NCBI RefSeq assembly: GCF_964213995.1
Contig: NC_135808.1
Location: forward strand, 23,312,001-23,376,000
DNA: 64,000 bases
Reading direction: 5' to 3'
Source: Mustelus asterias
Taxonomy: Eukaryota
Under the pieces are notes generated by a model. That model worked only from the letters and a program-made list of their open reading frames with translations. It had not been told where the DNA came from and ran no database searches. The stretch's first letter is position 1; every line of letters begins with the position of its first letter. Positions 16,741 through 49,201 of the stretch are shown piece after piece. Position numbers and translations under genes: made by a program.

Positions 16741-16787
16741 TCAGGAACGCGATGAGGAGCTGGATGAGGAATCCCCACCATCAGAAG
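16741..16787 (-). CDS. Gene A exon 7, cytoplasmic TSDGGDSSSSSSSRS-stop
   Basis: ctttaacag| acceptor; Ser-rich tail; TGA at 16741-16743 followed by G|gtatga (probable 3' UTR intron). Confidence 0.82.
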
Positions 16788-19700
16788 CTGTTAAAGGAAG
16801 GAGAGGTTTTTTAAAAATGTTCATTTCCACAGAGACAGAGACTGTGGATTTGAGAATGAGAGAGACAAAGAGAGACACAGAGAAAGAAAGAGGTTCTCAC
16901 ACACATACTGACGGTGACACACAGAAATACACACACACACACACACACACACACACGGTGTTTGATGATCAGCTTACTATTTGTAGGATTGTAGTCGTTC
17001 TTCCCTCTCCCTGTAAAACATGGAATGTTCAGTGAGTGACGAGACTGAGAGAAAATCAGAGACAGAGGCTGGAACTCTCGCTCGCACTGAGCCCCGACAA
17101 CACAATTCTGAAATCCTCACTCTCAGCCTGACCGGGACCCTCACTCCCACCCTGACCCTGGACCCTCACTCTGACCTGAGCCCCTCACAGATATCCTGAA
17201 CTCCATCCGCAATCTGAGACCCTTCCCACAATTCTCAGACACTCTCCCTTTATCTTGAGCCCCTTATCCTCCCTATCCCAACCCTGGGGCTCTTCCACCC
17301 ACTCTGTGACCCCCCCCACACCAACCTGAGACCCACAGCCTGAGCCACCCCCACCCTGGAATACTCTCCCACAATCCCTCCCCCCAGTGAGGAGCTGCTA
17401 TTTTCCCTCCAATTCCTACCTTTCTTGTTGTAGATGACAACAGCCACAATGATGAGAGCGATGAGCACGAGGACCCCGACCACAATCCCGACAGTAAGAG
17501 CAACCTGGGAGCGAGACTTTGGTTCTGTTAGAGAGAGAGAGAATCAGAGAGACTGAGTGAATCAGGGAGAGGGAAAAGTGAGAATCAGAGTGAGAGAATG
17601 GGAGAGAGTGGGAGAGAATGAGAGAGAGAGAGAGAGGGCTAGCATCTAAGAGTGAATGAGGGAGTGAATGAGAGATAGAAAAAGGTCAGAGAGTGAGAAT
17701 GAGAGAGTGAATCAGGGAGAAAGAAAGAGAAATGTAAGAGTGAGAATGAGAGAGGAAGAAAGAGAAATGAGAGAGTGAATCAGAGGGAGAGAGTGAATCA
17801 GGAAACACAGGATATACGACACAGAAACCGGCCATTCGGCCCATCCAGTTGATAGTGGTGTTAATGTTCTACTTGAGCCTCCTCCCATCTTTTTTTCTCA
17901 TCTAATTCGACCATTTCAACTCTATTCCCCTCTCCCTCATTTGCTTGTCTATCCTCCCCTTAAACTATACTGTTCAGTTCAGCCACTCCCTGTGGCAGCG
18001 AGCTCCACATTCTCATCACTCTTTGGGTGAAGAAGTTTCTCATGAATTCCCCATTGGGTTTCTTGTATTGATGGCCACTGGATATGCTCTTCCCACAAGA
18101 GGAACACTCTCGATGTGTCCGCTCGATAAAAAACCTTTCATAATTTTAAACTCCTCGATTCAATCAACCCTCAGCCTTCTGTTTTCCCGAGAGCAGAGAC
18201 CCAGCCAGTCAATCCTTTCCTGAGATGTCCACCTACTTATTTCTGGAATCATCTCTGTAAATCTTCTCTCCACTCTCTCCCCTGACTCTATATCCTTTGT
18301 ATGAAATGGTGACCGGAACTGCACACGGTCTTTAAATGTGGTCTAACCAAGGTTTGGCAATAACGTCCCTGCTTTACAATTCTATTCCTCGAGAAATCAA
18401 ACCTGGTTTTCGATTGTATTTTGTTTATTGTCTAACCTGTAACTCTATGTTTACTGATTGGTGTATTTGTCCATCAAGATCCCTTTGTTCCTCAACCCTC
18501 CCTATTCATCGTTAACTGAAAAATACCTCACGTTTATCTGTGCTGAACTTTATTCACCAACTATTTGCTGAAGTTTATTCATGTCCTATTAATTTATTCC
18601 AGTTCTCCTCAAAATCAAATAATTCCCCCAATTTGGTGTTATCTGCAAATTAAGAAATTGTATTTTTGATTCCAATATCCAAGTTATGGAGTGTAAGTTG
18701 TGAATAGCAGTGATCTCAACACTGATCCTTGTGGAATGATGGAGGAACCCAGCACATCAGTGCAAAAGATAAAGCCGAAGTATTCACAGCAATCTTCAGC
18801 CTGAAGTGCCGAGTGGATGATCCATCTCGGCCTCCTCCAGTGGTCCCCAGCATCTCAGATACCAGTCTCCAGATCATTCGATTCACTTCACGTGATATCA
18901 AGAAACGGTTGGAGGCACTGGATACTGCAAAGGCAATGGGCCCTGATAACATTCCACCAATAGCATTGAAGACTTGTGCTCCACAACTTGCCGACCCCCA
19001 AGCCAAGCTCTTCCAGTACAGTTACAACACTGGCATCTACCCAACAATGTGGAAAATTGCCCAGGTTATGCCCTGTACACAAAAAGCAGGACAAATCCAA
19101 CCCGGCCAATTACCGCCCAATCAGTCTACTATCGATCACCAGTAAAGTGATGGAAGGGGTCATCGACAGTGCTATCATACAGCACCTGCTCAGCGACGCC
19201 CAGTTTAGGTTTTGCCAGGGTCACTCAGCTCCTGACCTCATTGCAGCCTTGGTTCAAACATGGACAAAAGAGCTGAATTCCAGAGGTGAGGTGAGAGTGA
19301 CAGCCCTTGACATCCAGGCCAAATTTGACCGAGTGTGGATCAAGGAGCCCTAGCAAAACTGGAATCAGTGGGTATCAAGGGGCAAACTCTCCGCTGGTTG
19401 GAGTCAGACCTGGTACATAGGAAGATGGTTGTGGTTGTGGAGGGTCAGTCACCTCAGCTCCACGACATCTCTGCAGGAGTCCCTCAGGTAGTGTCCTCGG
19501 CCCAATAATCTTCAGCTGCTTCATCAATGACCTTCCCTCCATCAATAGGTCGGAAGTGGGGATGTTCGCCGATGATTGCACAATGTTCAGCACCATTCAC
19601 GACTCCTCAGATACTGAAGCAGTCCATGTTCAAATGCAGCAAGATCTGGACAATATCCAGGCTTGGGCTGACAAGTGGCAAATAACATTCGTGATGGAAT

Positions 19701-22700
19701 ACTCCCCTCTTGCCTGGATGGGTGCAGCTCCAACAACACTCAAGAAGCTCGAAACCATCCAGGACAAAGCAGCCCGCTTGATTGGCACCACATCTATAAA
19801 TATTCAATCTGTCTCCCACCGACGCTCAGTAGCAGCAGTGTGTACTATCTACAAGATGCACTGCAGCAATTCACTGATGATCCTGAGACAGCACCTTCCA
19901 AACACACAATCACTTCCATCTAGAAGGACAAGGACAGCAGATAAATGGGAAGATCACCACCTGCAAGTTCCCCTCCAAGCCACTCACCATCCTGACTTGC
20001 AAATATATCACCGTTCCTTCGAGGTCACTGGGTCAAAATACTAGAATTCCCTCCCTAACAGCATTGTCACCACCACCTTCTCAAGGGCAACGAGGCATCG
20101 GCAATAAATGCTGGTCACCCAGCGACACCCATGTCCCACGAATGAATTTAAAAAAACACATTTTCCACTTTCTGTCACTCCGAATAACTCCCTTTACTCA
20201 CACTCTCTGCTTTCTGTCCAAAAGTCAGTGAGTGATCCATTCTGTCACTCATCCCCTAACTCCACATGCTTTGACCTTGTCAATCAGTCCATCACGAACA
20301 CCCTTTTCTATTACATTTGAAAAATTATATGATATTATATCTATTACATTACCATTGTCTATTCCCTCTGTTACATCCTCAATTGTGTGCAGTTCTGGTC
20401 ACCTGGATGTGGAAGCGCTGGAAAGAGTGCAGAGGAGATTTACCAGGATGCTGCCTGGTTTGGAGGGTAGATCTTATGAGGAAAGGTTGAGGGAGCTAGG
20501 GCTGTTCTCTCTGGAGCGGAGGAGGCTGAGGGGAGACTTAATAGAGGTTTATAAAATGATGAAGGGGATAGATAGAGTGAACGTTCAAATACTATTTCCT
20601 TGGGTGGATGGAGCTATTACAAGGGGGCATAACTATAGGGTTCATGGTGGGAGATATAGGAAGGATATCAGAGGTAGGTTCTTCACGCAGAGAGTGGTTG
20701 GGGTGTGGAATGGACTGCCTGCAGTGATAATGGAGTCAGACACTTTAGGAACATTTAAGCGGTTATTGGATAGGCACATGGAGCACACCAGAATGATAGG
20801 GAGTGGGATAGCTTGATCTTGGTTTCAGATAAAGCTCGGCACAACATCGTGGGCCGAAGGGCCTGTTCTGTGCTGTACTGTTCTATGTTCTAAAAATCCA
20901 CTTAGTGGAGGAAAACAAGATTTTCCATTTCAAAATCTGTGCTGAATATTCATTGTTATAGGATTTGATTCTAGATTTTCATGAATTGTCTCCAATAGAA
21001 GGAATTCCATTATTTTTCTGAATATTGATCTTAATCTGACTGACATAAACTTCCAGGATGCACTGGGTCCTGTCCTACTGTAATATTTGATTTATTGTCA
21101 CATGTATTGGTATACAGTGAAAAGTATTGTTTCTTGGAGATACTGGGCCCTGTCTATCCTCTATCCAAGTGGAGAGGATCTCCAAGAAGATCACGCATAT
21201 CGACACAGACATCAAGTTTCTACAAACATGCAAGAAAGCAGACAAGATACCGAAAGGACTACGGATCACGAACCCACTCAGGTCAACCTTTAACACGGAC
21301 TACGCTGAGAGACTGTGCCGTCGCACCTCTCTCACCCTCCTCAAACACCTCATACACCAACTCTCCAGCAAACGCCGCAGCCTGGAAACCAAGATCAAAT
21401 CCATAGTCTCAGCTTGCGCTCAGGACGCAGACCAGCTGCGAAACTCTGCCAAGCAGATGAGACAAAGGAACTACACCATCTACATGCACACCAAGAACAG
21501 GAAACTTGAGAAACTCGGCATCACCACCAGCAGCAACCAAGCCTCCCCCGGTACCACAGTAGAAAACAGTGCCACTGCAGGAAAGTCCATTGTCAACCTA
21601 TCGGACTACACACTTCAGCCAGATGAAATCGAAGTTCTCAGCCAAGGGCTCAACTTTTGCCCCACTACCAAAATAGACCCCATCAGTCTCGCAGCAGACA
21701 CAGAGGAATTCATCAGGCGACTGAGGCTGCGGGAGTTCTTCCACAAACCCCAAGAGGCCAACAGCGAACATAATGAGACAGCTAATGAACCGGAACAGCA
21801 GACAGAGAGACCCGCAGTGCAACTGAAGAGGAAAGAGTCGAATTGGACTCCTCCGGAAGGCCGCTGCCCTCGACTTGACATGTATGCCCAAGCCATCAGG
21901 AGGTGCGTCAACACCAAATTCATCAGCCGCACTCACAGGACAGCACCGAACATCACCCAAGCACAACGCAACGCCATCCACGCTCTCACGACCAACCGCA
22001 ACATTGTCATCAAACCAGCAGACAAAGGAGGGGCCATCGTCATACTGAACAGAACGGATTACTGCAAAGAAGTGTACCGACAACTGAACAACGAGGAACA
22101 CTACAGACAGTTACCCACAGATCCGACCAAAGAACACACCCGTCAACTCAACACTCTGATCAAAACCTTTGATCCAGACCTTCAGAGCACCCTCCGTGCT
22201 CTCATCCCACGTACTCCACGCGTTGGAGATCTCTACTGCCTCCCAAAAATACACAAGGCAAACACACCCGGCCATCCCATCGTTTCAGGAAACGGAACCC
22301 TGTGCGAGAACCTCTCCGGCTATGTCGAGGGCATCTTGAAACCCATTGTACAAAGAACCCCCAGCTTTTGTCGCGACACTACGGACTTCCTACAGAAACT
22401 CAACACACATGGAGCAGTTGAACCAGGAGCACTCCTCGTCACAATGGATGTCTCGGCACTCTACACCAGCATCCCCCACGATGGTGGCATTGCTGCAACG
22501 GCCTCAGTACTCAATGCCGTCAACTGCCAGTTTCCAGATGCAATTTTACAACTCATCCGTTTCATCCTGGATCACAATATCTTCACCTTCAACAACCAGT
22601 TCTTCATCCAGACACACGGAACAGCCATGGGACAAAATTCGCACCTCAATATGCCAACATCTTCATGCACAGGTTCGAACAAGACTTCTTCACCGCACAG

Positions 22701-25700
22701 GACATTCAACCGATGCTATACACTAGATACATTGATGACATTTTCTTCCTTTGGAGTCATGGTGAGCAATCACTGAAACAACTATATGATGACATCAACA
22801 AGTTCCATCCCACCATCAGACTCACCATGGACTACTCTCCGGAATCGGTTGCATTCTTGGACACACGCATCTCCATTAAGGACGGTCACCTCAGCACCTC
22901 ACTGTACCGCAAGCCCACGGATAACCTCATGATGCTCCACTTCTCCAGCTTCCACCCTAAACACGTAAAAGAAGCCATCCCCTACGGACAAGCCCTCCGA
23001 ATACACAGGATCTGCTCGGACAAGGAGGATTACAACAGACACCTCCAGACGCTGAAAGATGCCCTCATAAGAACAGGATATGGCGCTCGACTCATCGATC
23101 AACAGTTCCAACGCGCCACAGCGAAAAACCGCACCGACCTCCTCAGAAGACAAACACGGGACACGGTGGACAGAGTACCCTTCGTCGTCCAGTACTTCCC
23201 TGGAGCGGAGAAGCTACGGCATCTCCTCCGGAACCTTCAACATGTCATTGATGAAGACGAACATCTCGCCAAGGCCATCCCCACACCCCCACTTCTTGCC
23301 TTCAAACAACCACGCAACCTCAAACAGACCGTTGTCTGCAGTAAACTACCCAGCCTTCAGGAGAACAGTGACCACGACACCACACAACCCTGCCACAGCA
23401 ACCTCTGCAAGACGTGCCGGATCATCAACACGGATGCCATCATCTCACGTGAGAACACCATCTACCAGGTACACGGTACCTACTCTTGCAACTCAGCCAA
23501 CGTTGTCTACCTGATACGCTGCAAGAAAGGATGTCCCGAGGCATGGTACATTGGGGAAACCATGCAGACGCTACGACAACGGATGAATGAACATCGCTCG
23601 ACAATCACCAGGCAAGACTGTTCTCTTCCTGTGGGGGAGCACTTCAGCAGTCACGGGCATTCAGCCTTGGGTCTTCAGGTAAGCGTTCTCCAAGGCGGCC
23701 TTCACGACACACGACAGCGCAGAGTCGCTGAGCAGAAACTGATAGCCAAGTTCCGCACACATGAGGACGGCCTAAACCAGGATGTTGGATTTATGTCACA
23801 TTATCAGTAACCCCCACAGCTTGCCTCCTGGACTTGCAGAATTTCACAAGCTGTTCTGTCTGGAGACAATACACATCTCTTTAACCTGTGTTGAATGCTC
23901 CCTCCACCCACATTGTCTGTACATTTAAGACCTGGCTGGCTGTAGAGATTTGCATTCTAATCAGTATTATGTAATTTGATTTCTGTGTCTGTGCTCTGTT
24001 TGAGAACAGATATCCACTCCATCTGACGAAGGAGCTCTGCTCCGAAAGCTTATGGTATTTGCTACCAAATAAACCTGTTGGACTTTAACCTGGTGTTGTG
24101 AGACTTCTTACTGTGCTTATCCTCTAATATCCCAGGCACATCATGCCCTTCCTCCTGTAACATCCCAGGATACACCAGGCCCTGTCTACCCTCTAATATC
24201 CCTGGCACACTGGGCCCTACCTCCTGTAATATCCTATGTTACCCTGGGTCATCGCATACAGTAATATCCCAGGATACACCAGGCCCTGTAAGGCTGCAAT
24301 ATCTCAGGATACACTAGGATTTGTCCTTTTATAATATCCCAGGATACACTGCATTCTGTATTACTGCAGTATCCCAGGATACACTCGGTCCTGTCAGGCT
24401 GCAATATCCCACATACACTGGGCCCCACCATACTGTAATATCCCAGAACACCCCACGTCCAGATTACTCTAATGTCCAATGATGCACCAGGCCCTGTGCG
24501 ACTGTAATATCCCATGGTACACTATATCATGTTGTACTGTAATATCCCAGGATACACCAGGCCCTGTTATACTGTCCTATCCCAGGATACTCTGGGCTCT
24601 GTCATACTGTAATCCCAGGATACACTGCTTCCCGTGCGACAATAATATCCCAAAATGCACTGGGTCTTGTCGTACAATAATATCCCTGGACACACTGGGC
24701 TCTGTCATACTCTAATATCCCAATTAAACCAGGCCCTTGTGTATAGTAACATCCGAGGATACACTTGGCCTTGTCCCTACTGTAATATCGCAGGATACAC
24801 TGGGCCCTGACCAATTAAAGGATCTCATGATACACAGCACCCTGTCCCACTGTAATGTCCAATAACGCAATGGGTCCTGTACTCCCAGTTATTTCCCAGG
24901 ATGCACCAGGCCTTGTCATGCTGTAATATCCCAAGGTACACCTGGCCTTATCCATCCTGTAATATCCCACAAGACACTGGATCCAGTTGCACTATAATAC
25001 GGCAGGATACAGTGGGGTATGTTTCATGTCAAATCCATGGACACACAATTATTTCCCTCTAAAGGTGGTGCCATGATATATAACACATTGAAGGTTAATA
25101 TTTATTTTCCTCTCTGTATCCCGGGCCTCAGGCTGTCCTGGGCTGACAGCTCAGCACTGACCCTCCCTCCTATGATCCTGGTCTGAGGCTGGGTCCTCTC
25201 TAACAGTGAGAAACAGTCTTACCGTAAATCACCACCAGTGTCTCCTTCATCCCGCTGTGTTCCACCCGACAGGAATACTCGGCCTGGTCCTCTGGATCAA
25301 ACTCTACCCATTTCCGGATCTGGTAGGTGCTGTCGGGATTGGGTAAGATCCCAGTGGACAGAGTCTCATCAATCACCACTCCGTCTCTCCACAGATTCAC
25401 CTCTATGGCTTGAGGGTAAAACCCGGTGACGGCACAGGACAGCCGGTTAGAATCACCCAGACGGGTAAAGGACACGACGGGGGCAACTGAGAGAGAAAGA
25501 AAGAGGAGTCAGTACAGGAACCTCGAGATAGAGAGTCCCGGCATCACCCCCTTCACCGACTCTCACTCCCCCCTCACTCACCGACTCTCACTCCCCCCTC
25601 ACTCACCGACTCTCACTCACCCCTCACTCACCGACTCTCACTCCCCGACTCTCACTCCCCCCTCACTCACCGACTCTCACTCCCCCCTCACTCACCGACT

Positions 25701-28642
25701 CTCACTCCCCTCTCACTCACCGACTCTCACTCCCCCCTCACTCACCGACTCTCACTCCCCCCTCACTCACCGACTCTCACTCACTAACTCTCACTCCCCC
25801 CTCACTCACCGACTCTCACTCCCCCCTCACTCACCGACTCTCACCGACTCTCACTCCCCCCTCACTCACCGACTCTCACTCCCCCCTCACTCCCCGACCC
25901 TCACTACCCCCCTCACTCACCGACTCTCAATTCTCTCTGTCCGTACTCCAGGTATTTTCTCAGCCACTCGATACACTCCACCTCCAGGTAATGTTTCAAT
26001 CGCTGAATGTGTCCAGTCTGCCGGTCGCACCTGTTTTTGATGCTCTCCCCCCAGGGCACTGGGGTCACCCACACCATGTGCTCATTGTCCAAACTGAGAA
26101 CATCATGTCCGTCCCACCCATACTGGCTGAATCCACTCGTGGTCCCATCATCCCGCAGGTCACAGCCAGTCATCATCTGGCAGACATGGACCCCTGTGGA
26201 TCAGAAACACAAACAGCCAATCAGAGACAGTCCCAATGGGCGATCCCACCTGTACAGCCAATCAGAACGTGTCTCACTGGGCGATCTCATCCCACCAGCC
26301 AATCAACATCAACTACAGGATTTATGATCATCTAGAGAAGTTTAGTATGATCAAAAGTAGTCAGCACGGCTTTGTCAAGGGCAGGTCGTGCCTTACGAGC
26401 CTGGTTGAGTTCTTTGAAAATGTGACCAAACACATTGACGAAGGAAGAGCGGTGGATGTGGTCTATATGGACTTCAGCAAGGCGTTCGATAAGGTCCCCC
26501 ATGCAAGACTTCTTGAGAAAGTGAGAGGGCATGGGATCCAAGGGGCTGTTGCCTTGTGGATCCAGAACTGGCTTGCCTGCAGAAGGCAGAGGAGTGGCTG
26601 TGGAGGGGTCTTTCTCTGCATGGAGGTCAGTGACCAGTGGAGTGCCCCAGGGATCTGTTCTGGGACCCTTGCTGTTTGTCATTTTCATAAATGACCTGGA
26701 TGAGGAAGTGGAGGGATGGGTTGGTAAGTTTGCTGACGACACCAAGGTAGGTGGTGTTGTGGATAGTTTGGAGAGATGTCAGAAGTTGCAGCGAGACATA
26801 GATAGAATGCAAGACTGGGCGGAGAAGTGGCAGATGGACTTCAACCCGGATAAGTGTGTGGTGATCCATTTTGGCAGATCCAATGGGATGAAGCAGCAGT
26901 ATAATATGAAGGGTACCATTCTTAGCAGTGTAGAGGATCAGAAGGACCTTGGGGTCCGGGTCCATAGGACTCTTAAATCGGCCTCGCAGGTGGAGGATGC
27001 GGTCAAGAAGGCGTACGGCGTACTGGCCTTCATTAATCGAGGGATTGAGTTTAGGAGTCGGGAGATAATGCTGCAGCTTTATAGGACCCTGGTTAGACCC
27101 CACTTGGAGTACTGCGCGCAGTTCTGGTCACCTCATTACAGGAAAGATGTTGAAGCCATTGAAAGGGTGCAGAGGAGATTTACAAGGATGTTGCCTGGAT
27201 TGGGGGGCATGCCTTATGAGGATAGGTTGAGGGAGCTTGGTCTCTTCTCCCTGGAGAGACGAAGGATGAGAGGTGACCTGATAGAGGTTTACAAGATGTT
27301 GAGAGGTCTGGATAGGGTAGACTCTCAGAGGCTATTTCCAAGGGCTGAAATGGTTGCTACGAGAGGACACAGGTTTAAGGTGCTGGGGGGTTGGTACAGA
27401 GGAGATGTCAGGGGTAAGTTTTTCACTCAGAGGGTGGTGGGTGAGTGGAATCGGCTGACGTCGGTGGTGGTGGAGGCAAACTCGTTGGGGTCTTTTAAGA
27501 GACTTCTGGATGAGTACATGGGATTTAATGGGATTGAGGGCTATAGATGTGCCTAGAGGTGGGGATGTGATCGGCGCAACTTGTGGGCCGAAGGGCCTGT
27601 TTGTGCTGTGGCTTTCTATGTTCTATGTTCTACACCCCCCCCCCCCCTCCCCCCCACTCCGCTCACACACAGCCAATCAGAGCCAGCTCCCTGGACACAA
27701 TCCCTCCACATATTCACAGCCAATCACATTTCCTGTCACATCTCCAATCGTAGCCAATCAACCTCTGGCTCCCAGTCCCTAATCCACTCTGGGTTTCTCC
27801 TCATTCCCACCTGGATCCCCGGGTGCTGGGAGAGTGAGCACTCACCTCCTGTCTGGTTGGTGTGGGACATGTAGAGCGGAATATCAGCTTTCAAATACAT
27901 CTCCTGCTCCTCTGTGAAGATCTTCTTCCGCTCCCAGGCTGCCGGACCCTCGCTCTCCACCATCCACTGCTCCCGGGGGATCAGCTCCCTCCGATCGCTG
28001 TCGTACATCACAAACTGGACACCGTCCACATAAACAACAGCCACAAACTCCGGGAAATCCGGGATCAAAGTCATTCCCGTGAAGAAATACCGCAGAGAGT
28101 GAGAGCCTGAAATACAGAGAGAGAGAATTCAGGATAGACACCCTAAAAACACCAACACTCTCACACACACACACACACACACACAGAGATCAGGGCATGA
28201 ACCCCAAAACACTGATTCCAAACCGAGAGCAAGGCCTCCACCCAGCCTGGCATTGCCCCTCTCACACCCCATCACTCACTGACCAGGGTTAATGCCCCAG
28301 TACCCAGCCTGGCATTGCCCCTCTCACACCCCATCAGTCAATGACCCAGGGTTAATGCCCCAGTACCCAGCCTGGCATTGCCCCTCTCACACCCCATCAC
28401 TCACTGACCCAGGGTTAATGCCCCAGTACCCAGCCTGGCATTGCCCCTCTCACACCCCATCACTCACTGACCCAGTGTTAATGCCCCAGTACCCAGCCTG
28501 GCATTGCTCCTCTCACACCCCATCACTCACTGACCCAGGGTTAATACCCCAGTACCCAGCCTGGCATTGCCCCTCTCACACCCCATCACTCACCTGCAGA
28601 CACCTCTCCACACAGAAGGACCAGCTCTATCAGTCCAATCAT
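16741..28642 (-). CDS. MHC class I heavy chain (gene A), intact, probably non-classical; join(28594-28642, 27846-28106, 25921-26193, 25223-25486, 17420-17524, 16978-17010, 16741-16787), 343 aa
   Basis: Seven exons with GT/AG boundaries, all phase 1, totalling 1032 nt with no internal stop. Class I motifs: GSHSLRYF, NQT glycosylation site, alpha2 C..C, Ig C1 FYP/C..C, TM and Tyr-containing tail. Confidence 0.95.
16978..17010 (-). CDS. Gene A exon 6, cytoplasmic GRGKNDYNPTN
   Basis: ttttacag| acceptor, |gtaagc donor, 33 nt, Tyr at the usual class I tail position. Confidence 0.85.
17420..17524 (-). CDS. Gene A exon 5, connecting peptide and transmembrane
   Basis: taacag|AA CCA ... EPKSRSQVALTVGIVVGVLVLIALIIVAVVIYNKK G|gtagg; 105 nt. 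Confidence 0.92.
18725..20155 (+). mobile_element. Non-LTR retrotransposon RT fragment (CR1/L2 group, different subfamily)
   Basis: KAMGPDNI, NYRPISLLS, FADDCT in disrupted frames. Confidence 0.85.
20383..20892 (+). mobile_element. CR1 LINE 3' end
   Basis: LERVQRRFTRML...FFTQRVV; TTCTATG tail. Confidence 0.9.
21164..24117 (+). mobile_element. Penelope-like retroelement, near full length (RT plus GIY-YIG endonuclease), one frameshift near 22630
   Basis: ORFs 21127-22776 and 22665-23810: IKPADKGG, LPKIHK, DVSALYTSI, GTAMG, YIDD, VVYLIRC...WYIGET; flanked by 9-bp direct repeat TATCCTCTA (21155-21163, 24118-24126). Confidence 0.95.
24019..24055 (+). ncRNA. Minimal type I hammerhead ribozyme in the Penelope 3' repeat
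   Basis: CCAT-CTGACGA-A-GGAGC-TCT-GCTCC-GAAA-GC-TT-ATGG: full core, stem II, palindromic short stem III, stem I CCAU/AUGG. Confidence 0.85.
24120..25020. repeat. Degenerate ~37-40-bp minisatellite in gene A intron 4
   Basis: Repeated CTGTAATATCCCAGGATACACTGGGCCCTGTC; first units at ~21050-21163 before the Penelope insertion. Confidence 0.85.
25223..25486 (-). CDS. Gene A exon 4, alpha3 Ig C1 domain
   Basis: LSCAVTGFYPQAIEVNLWRDG...LPNPDSTYQ...YSCRVEHSG; ctcag| acceptor, |gtaag donor; 264 nt. Confidence 0.96.
25550..25930 (-). repeat. 25-bp minisatellite in gene A intron 3 (shorter copy 46110-46228 in gene B)
   Basis: Unit CTCACTCACCGACTCTCACTCCCCC, about 15 copies, overlapping the exon 3 end. 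Confidence 0.95.
25921..26193 (-). CDS. Gene A exon 3, alpha2 domain
   Basis: ccacag|GG GTC CAT ... GCDLRDDG...YGWDG...YLEVECIEWLRKYLEYG...RV G|gtgagt; 273 nt. Confidence 0.96.
26313..27631 (+). mobile_element. CR1 LINE, 5'-truncated, in intron 2 of gene A
   Basis: QHGFVKGRSCLT, GVPQGSVLGP, FADDTK, (TTCTATG)n tail; same subfamily as 4018-5778. Confidence 0.94.
27846..28106 (-). CDS. Gene A exon 2, alpha1 domain
   Basis: tttcag|GC TCT CAC ... GSHSLRYFFTGMTLIPDFPEFVAVVYVDG...HTNQTG G|gtgag; 261 nt. Confidence 0.96.
28241..28593 (-). repeat. 63-bp minisatellite in gene A intron 1 (~5.6 copies)
   Basis: Unit CCCAGCCTGGCATTGCCCCTCTCACACCCCATCACTCACTGACCCAGGGTTAATGCCCCAGTA. Confidence 0.95.
28594..28642 (-). 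CDS. Gene A exon 1, leader MIGLIELVLLCGEVSA
   Basis: ATG at 28642, 49 nt, ends GCAG|gtgagt; identical exon in gene B. Confidence 0.88.
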
Positions 28643-28752
28643 TGCTGCTTCCCTCATGTTGGGGGAATCATTTGGAGGAAACTCTTATTCAAAGAATGGC
28701 CATTTCCTCAACTCACTCCTTCTGTCTTTTCCTGTTCACACTGAGCCTCAAT

Positions 28753-45400: not shown

Positions 45401-46596
45401 AAACCCATCAGACCCCCAAACACAAGCTAAACCCATCAGACCCCCAAACACCAGCTAAACCCATCAGGCCCCCAAACACCAGCTAAACCCATCAGCGCTC
45501 CAAACACCAGCTAAAGTCATCAGACCCCCAAACACCAGCAAAACCGATCAGACCCCCAAACACTAGCGAAACCCATCAGACCCCCAAACAGCAGCAAAAC
45601 CCATCAGGCCCGCAAACACCAGCTAAACCCATCAGCGTTCCAAACACCAGCTAAACCCATCAGTCCCCCAAACACCAGCTAAACCCATCAGACCCCCAAA
45701 CACCAGCAAAACCCATCAGACCCCCAAACACCAGCTAAACCCATCAGAGCCCCAAACACCAGCTAAACCCATCAGACCCCCAAACACCAGCTAAACCCTA
45801 AACACCAGCTAAACCCATCAGAGCCCCAAACACCAGCTAAACCGCGAAGATCCACTCTGTCCCCCAAACATTCAGCGAAAGATCAGAACCATCACAAAAC
45901 ACGATTGATGTTAAATCCTGTGGGAATGACAGACCCCAATGGCCAAATTCAGGGAAAACTCTGGGAATTCTGTCTTCCTTAAGGAAATTGAGCCCTCCCC
46001 CCCGCACCCTCTCCCCTCCCCCCCAGCACCCTCCCCCCCGCACCCTCCCACCTCACCCCCACCCCCCGCACCCTCCCCCCCTCACCCTCCCCCCCAGCAC
46101 CCTCTCCCCCTCACTCACCGACTCTCACATCCCCCCTCATTCACCGACTCTCACTCCCCCCTCACTCACCGACTCTCACTCCCCCCTCACTCACTGACTC
46201 TCACTCCCCCCTCGCTCACCGACTCTCAGTAATTTTTGTCCGTACTCCAGATATTTCCTCAGCCACTCGATACACTCCACCTCCAGGTAACGTTTCCATC
46301 GCTGGTTAATGACCGTGCTGCCCTCCCACTTTTGTTTGATGATCTCTCCCCAAGGGACGGGGGTCACCCACACCAGAAGATCCTTATCAAAACTGATGAA
46401 ATCTAGTCCGTCCCACCCGTACTGGTTGAATCCAGTCGTATTCCCATCATCACTCAGGTCACAGCCGGTCATCAGCTGGTGTATGTGGATCCCGGTGGAT
46501 TAGAAAGATAACCTGCCAATCAGGGCCAGTCCCAATAAAAGCCGCACTCACCATGAACCCATCCAAACAGATCCGTTCCCACTGGAGGTCCAGCCA

Positions 46597-48899: not shown

Positions 48900-49201
48900 A
48901 TGCCCCTGTACCCAGCCTGGCATTGCCCCTCTCACACCCCATCACTCACTGACCCAAGGTTAATGCCCCAGTGCCCAGCCTGGCACTGCCCCTCTCACAC
49001 CCCATCACTCACTGACCCAGGGTTAATGCCCCAGTACCCAGCCTGGCATTGCCCCTCTCACACCCCATCACTCACTGACCCAGGGTTAATGCCCCAGTAC
49101 CCAGCCTGGCATTGCCCCTCTCACACCCCATCACTCACTGACCCAGGGTTAATGCCCCAGTACCCAGCCTGGCATTGCCCCTCTCACACCCCATCACTCA
49201 C
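48900..49201 (-). repeat. 63-bp minisatellite in gene B intron 1 (~4.7 copies)
   Basis: Same unit as 28241-28593. Confidence 0.95.

Follow-up and report, generated by a model that had tools for sequence, protein, structure and literature searches.

The window, by which we mean the whole stretch of 64,000 nucleotides that was analysed (C8:23312001-23376000), carries on its minus strand (28657-16741) an intact MHC class I gene of a shark. The gene has seven coding exons, and its spliced frame has 348 codons and a single terminal stop. The alpha2 exon has its best match among class I structures in 6lup_A (E 2e-28) and is also matched by shark class I proteins, and the NCBI model P0034 (XP_078073667.1) is identical to the gene from alpha1 through to the end. 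The features discussed below are the following, with the basis of each in brackets and a slash in motifs marking the exon-intron boundary:

46106..46228, minus strand: 25-bp array of about 5 units behind alpha2 of an upstream paralogue (TRF, sequence).
28594..28657, minus strand: exon 1, coding part of the leader (sequence, spliced frame).
28240..28593, minus strand: 63-bp minisatellite running from the leader donor, with four weaker donor-like copies, TCA/GTGAGT (TRF, sequence).
27846..28106, minus strand: exon 2, alpha1 domain (sequence; spliced joint to alpha2 in RNA-like contigs).
25921..26193, minus strand: exon 3, MHC class I alpha2 domain (sequence, structure and protein matches).
25553..25929, minus strand: 25-bp minisatellite, its first unit lying across the boundary of the alpha2 exon and intron 3 (TRF, sequence, shuffles).
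25913..25915, minus strand: in-frame TGA reached on read-through of the true donor, GGT GAG TGA (sequence).
25869, 25834, 25809, 25770, 25745, 25720, 25695, 25670, 25631, 25606 and 25581, minus strand: first intron base of each of 11 exact donor copies (exact match).
25487..25920, minus strand: intron 3, 434 nt, GT..AG, phase 1 (joint 25921-25486 in four of four probable RNA runs).
25223..25486, minus strand: exon 4, alpha3 domain (sequence, NCBI models).
17420..17524, minus strand: exon 5, connecting peptide and transmembrane segment (spliced frame).
16978..17010, minus strand: exon 6, cytoplasmic (spliced frame).
16741..16787, minus strand: exon 7, cytoplasmic end and stop (spliced frame).

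Introns 2 and 4 contain LINE-like insertions (window 26300-27600 and about 22000-24100, respectively), the element of intron 2 being abundant in RNA-like runs, and intron 4 also holds a degenerate 35-bp minisatellite of 24 copies (window 24125-24969). The upstream paralogue (49260-46100, minus strand) has a CG in place of the AG of its alpha2 acceptor, an apparent 4-base duplication near the end of alpha1 and a LINE right behind the alpha1 donor. Its sequence breaks off after about 5 units of the array, within which TGAGAGTCG/GTGAGT occurs twice (46113-46178), and no alpha3 exon belonging to it was found within the window; this paralogue looks broken. In the model P0034 the alpha2 exon of this truncated paralogue (46490-46221) is joined to the alpha1 exon of the focal gene (28106), the leader being skipped, and models P0001, P0035 and P0036 at sister loci are of the same alpha2-alpha1-alpha2-alpha3 read-through type. 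Such models, of 411 residues, were considered as products of repeat donors and rejected, being joins of two neighbouring genes. Two other paralogue models, P0044 and P0049, have a short tail after alpha3 and no transmembrane segment, and ends of this type might yield a soluble form with no part played by the donor array.

Copies of the donor in intron 3

The period-25 array is reported by TRF with scores of 233-383, as about 12 full units and partial units of 10-14 bp. It covers the boundary 25921/25920, the first of its tandem units lying across the exon-intron junction. An earlier note on this DNA had described an intronic minisatellite of donor copies at about 25550..25930 within a 434-bp intron, and both statements agree with the coordinates found here; the exon part copied in the unit is, instead of the last 8 exonic bases given there, 9 nt long. 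The 15-mer TGAGAGTCG/GTGAGT occurs 12 times at the focal locus, as the true donor and its 11 exact copies, and its count in shuffled versions of the window (n=100) is 0. Two more GTGAGT sites, at 25784 and 25620, have different bases at -3 to -1.

The claim that the copies reproduce the exon end and the donor was borne out. They are also as strong as the true site by predicted pairing with the end of U1, which is -10.2 kcal/mol for the true donor and for each of the 11 exact copies. That a dozen identical donors follow the real one is correct as regards the 11 exact copies, but in the copy adjoining the true donor the site is broken, its GT having become GG, and the first intact copy is thus met 51 nt inside the intron, at 25869. 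In the same way the array does hold the reported G6 runs (11 runs of six or more G, with a G4Hunter mean of 1.30), but the suggested quadruplexes reduce to a single canonical G3N1-7 motif, within the first 40 nt of the intron. A junction made from a copy donor would join a G-run and AGTGAGAGTCG to the start of alpha3, and would be unlike the junction of the unique exon end only beyond 9 nt. In the 63-bp minisatellite at the leader donor, which is present in the upstream paralogue as well (window 48900-49201), predicted U1 pairing is -6.5 for TCA/GTGAGT versus -13.0 for the leader donor itself.

As the earlier note had stated, the use of any downstream donor would add an in-frame stop after alpha2, since all copies lie behind the TGA at 25915-25913. 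The read-through product has 201 residues, made up of the leader, alpha1, alpha2 and the dipeptide GE. Three more exon junctions follow this TGA, and by the usual exon-junction rule the message is therefore predicted to be a target of nonsense-mediated decay (NMD). The stop arises because the GTGAGTGA or GTAAGTGA donor sits in phase 1; GE-stop or GK-stop read-through is also found in the array-free genes L026, L030, L044, L045 and L047, and a stop is met on read-through at the leader donor of the focal gene too. The donor consensus in phase 1 thus brings the in-frame stop with it, and the stop is nothing special to the array.

The array across the class I cluster

A search with the alpha2 exon gave 77 matches on C8, with about 55 loci at 21.6-24.8 Mb. 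We examined 46 loci of this cluster and five distant class I loci; with the exclusion of L042 and L043, in which there is no alpha2 end, 44 cluster loci were compared. The array is present with 3-75 units in 38 of the 44, some of these counts being lower bounds where the locus ended first. One locus (L022) has 2 units, beyond an insertion, and five (L024-26, L030, L031) have no array and an intron 3 of 75-83 nt. None of the five distant class I loci carries it. Typing of unit number across paralogues, which had been proposed as a check, thus gives wide variation, from 0 to 75 units among the paralogues of one assembly. Those paralogues that come nearest to the focal gene, at 98-99% identity in alpha2, carry 26-27 units versus its 12, and L032 and L033, whose alpha2 exons are identical, differ by 18 units (44 versus 26). 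No alpha2 match falls within a further locus, L056 (C8:21812313-21815371), which has an alpha3 exon along with a long array.

A 59-nt stretch of the array has 189 exact matches in the genome, and the 100 of these that were listed all lie at C8:21.7-23.8 Mb. A donor-spanning array was found at none of 58 proteasome and DEAD-family exon ends, whose donors were placed roughly by motif. The idea that such arrays are common at donors genome-wide was therefore dropped; the array is an uncommon feature overall, but within the class I cluster it is general, as a trait of that gene family. The array-free paralogues may have lost the array secondarily or may keep an ancestral state. They form one clade (100/100) within the cluster, and monophyly of the array-bearing rows was not rejected by the AU test (p 0.072; 49 rows, L042 and L043 left out).

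Several paralogues have exons ending in GACAGCCG or GACAGCTG, yet their units read GAGAGTCG, so that unit and exon end do not change in step. At nine loci the first donor, TCT/GTGAGT, is weak (-6.3) and is followed by 9-36 stronger exact copies; the annotated models of these loci, with a V-F junction, still imply the first donor.

L008-L011, L013, L016, L017, L019, L020: the nine loci with the weak first donor TCT/GTGAGT, which are the most suitable cases for a test of donor choice.

Conservation of the copied donor was scanned by Hamming distance in 421 units from 25 non-redundant loci, changes being counted per locus. At the two bases of the donor GT (+1/+2) the locus-level changes number 4 and 6, and ten flanking positions outside the CpG average 6. 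For the CpG at -2/-1 the numbers are 12 and 14, mostly C>T and G>A, a pattern as in decaying methylated DNA, while changes are few at +3/+4 (2 and 1) and 0 at -6. The GT of the copies shows no clear sign of either protection or purging, and selection on an alternative donor was not detected in these units, in which the copy GT changes about as often as the flanks; five paralogues carry no array.

Splice junctions and the role of the array

The RNA data are assembled contigs from five runs (X1-X5), which were guessed to be RNA and are labelled as other, related organisms; rare forms are lost from contigs, and the product proposed would be reduced by NMD. The first contig set (X1, X2, X3 and X5; 15 of 36 joints shown) contains the joint 25921-25486 and the joint across intron 2 in three runs. 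Run X2 was set aside as uninformative, since it covered only the LINE in intron 2. The second set covers 671 bases with 3 joints in all. The joint 25921-25486 is present in four of four runs (X1, X3, X5, X4), at depths of 566, 416, 198 and 225 and with shorter sides of 21-71 nt, and none of the 3 joints in the contigs of these runs leads from the array to the acceptor. The count of junctions from repeat units to 25486, by which the earlier note wished to be judged, thus returned the 25921 joint only, in four of four contig runs without NMD block.

The junction type of the array-free paralogues, with the exon end GAGAGTTG, is present in X1 at a depth of 613. The same run has one loose end of 8 letters, which is compatible with either the true or a copy donor. 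Low-depth array-like contigs of X1 were considered as intron retention and rejected, as they have mismatches and one of them continues into unrelated sequence. Run X5 contains one rearrangement within the array (depth 2) and an exact 55-nt piece of the array (depth 4, versus 198 for the junction), from which it follows that the organism of X5 carries the array; the array itself is evident only in X5, and perhaps in X1. The 30 NCBI models checked under the species label all run straight on from alpha2 to alpha3 or alpha1 and so use the first donor, and an alpha1-alpha2-only model is absent among the 30. This is weak evidence, because transcripts subject to NMD get no protein model, and the models may rest on homology.

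We read the array as a near-neutral, donor-spanning minisatellite whose copies are silent since the first donor wins, and give this reading a probability of roughly 0.7. It may have been seeded by a short duplication across the donor in the ancestor of the class I cluster, in an intron 3 otherwise probably of about 75 nt; it would have grown and shrunk since by unequal exchange or slippage, and gene duplication would have spread it. Mammalian work suggests how the copies could stay silent: the most upstream donor would be chosen first, as in F7 minigenes, donors behind an in-frame stop may be suppressed, G-runs between donors would tilt the choice, if at all, towards the first, and rare slips to copy donors would be removed by NMD. 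On this view splicing probably settles on the first donor and the copies remain silent latent sites, for which reason the array is likely to be near-neutral. Some observations run counter to this reading, namely that the array persists in 38 of 44 loci and in deep branches of the cluster, that +3/+4 are little varied, that none of the 58 non-MHC ends has an array, and that two extra donors are used in human IFI6 and CBS (PMC1557585).

The earlier note had proposed a switch, in which unit number sets the share of copy donors and with it the output of NMD-targeted mRNA or secreted alpha1-alpha2, tuning surface class I. The equal predicted pairing of copies and true donor, the stop ahead of every copy, the range of 0-75 units among paralogues and the nine paralogues whose first donor (-6.3) is weaker than the copies are all in its favour, but the copy-donor junction is found in 0 of 4 runs, the alpha1-alpha2-only product has no counterpart among the 30 models, the nearest copy in the focal gene is broken, and the GT of the copies has no excess conservation. 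Intact paralogues are spliced without any array and meet the stop all the same, and the human cases use only proximal copies though up to 25 follow (PMC1557585). We hold the switch to be very improbable, and an ordinary repeat is likely instead. If true, it would let class I expression be set by a dial that mutates fast, of which our literature search found no description. An extension of the same idea, which we regard as a long shot, is that stress or infection activates the copies according to array length and weakness of the first donor, so that each of about 40 class Ib paralogues would be turned down or would shed the 201-residue alpha1-alpha2 form; the most sensitive would then be the nine paralogues in which 9-36 stronger copies follow a weak first donor.

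An unlikely but milder alternative is that the first one or two intact copies leak as low-level noise, more so under heat or other stress, and are cleared by NMD independently of total unit number. Two proximal pseudo-sites are used in IFI6 and CBS (PMC1557585), heat shock and hypoxia activate stop-preceded latent donors in human cells (PMC3510495), and such leakage is partly compatible with the near-neutral reading; however, none was seen in the contigs, although X5 kept pieces of depth 2-4 beside a junction of depth 198. It is quite improbable, in our judgement, that the array has another role, either through G-runs that enhance the first donor from within the intron or by promoting exchange between paralogues at the border of the groove exons and alpha3. 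The 11 G6 runs with their G4Hunter mean of 1.30 point that way, as do human reporters, where intronic elements or silencers that lie between two rival donors mostly shift the choice to the upstream site (PMC1877881); for exchange speak the upstream paralogue, whose sequence ends inside its own array, and the near-identity of alpha3 among models whose alpha2 differs by 30%. Array-free paralogues are nevertheless spliced and have the same alpha3. G-rich repeats are error-prone in assemblies, but an assembly artefact has a negligible probability given that sister paralogues L008-L011 share a pattern of variant units, that an independent run contains the exact 55-nt piece and that the 59-nt stretch recurs in 189 exact matches.

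Comparison with known systems

Proteasome-family matches and divergent class I genes lie together at C8:41.3-42.4 Mb, away from the cluster of about 55 loci. The motif ITKNKWD of the nurse-shark-type structure 6lup_A is SIKNRCD in the focal gene, i.e. peptide-anchor residues (presumably T143, K146 and W147) are changed. The elasmobranch UBA genes are described as a multicopy non-classical class I cluster, located away from class Ia, derived from UAA and with changed anchors (PMC10751288, PMC12562908). The focal cluster resembles UBA in being multicopy, in its position away from the class Ia region and in its changed classical anchors, and by these cluster and anchor features the host gene is consistent with the multicopy cluster of class Ib genes called UBA. 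The available parts of those two papers do not mention intron repeats of UBA, nor does the available part of PMC10078293 mention donor arrays. Our search, mostly outside subscription journals and confined to main papers, turned up no report of such an array in an intron of a shark class I gene.

The nearest parallel is the 37-bp VNTR in intron 7 of human F7, where splicing takes only the most upstream of 5-9 competing, identical donors (Borensztajn et al. 2006, PMC1557585). In both F7 and the shark gene the first unit spans the exon-intron boundary and identical donors follow, so that the shark array has both structural features of an F7-type donor-spanning minisatellite; as to splicing, F7 uses the most upstream donor alone, and in the shark gene the first donor alone was seen in contigs of related organisms. 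The shark array differs from the F7 repeat in its unit of 25 bp, of which 9 bases are exonic, in its 11 copies, its G6 runs and the in-frame stop ahead of every copy, and in being common to about 40 paralogues, its variation being known among paralogues of one assembly. Other human donor arrays (IFI6, CBS, LMNB2, PDGF) have 10-25 reiterated donors after the authentic one (PMC1557585). The LMNB2 minisatellite and that of PDGF intron 4 are like the shark gene in that only the authentic donor is seen in use, whereas IFI6 (6-16) intron 2 and CBS intron 13 also use two proximal copies out of 15-25 (PMC1557585), and no such use was seen in the shark contigs of related organisms. Latent 5' splice sites behind in-frame stops, normally unused and activated by stress (Nevo et al. 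2012, PMC3510495), share with the shark copies a consensus donor preceded by an in-frame stop; they are described as scattered single sites of human genes, whereas the shark copies form a tandem array.

Donor-spanning minisatellites are thus known from several human genes, and the shark class I array is a further example of the kind. With about 40 near-identical genes, 0-75 copy donors and strong or weak first donors, the cluster is a natural test series, in which upstream-first donor choice could be tested outside mammals.
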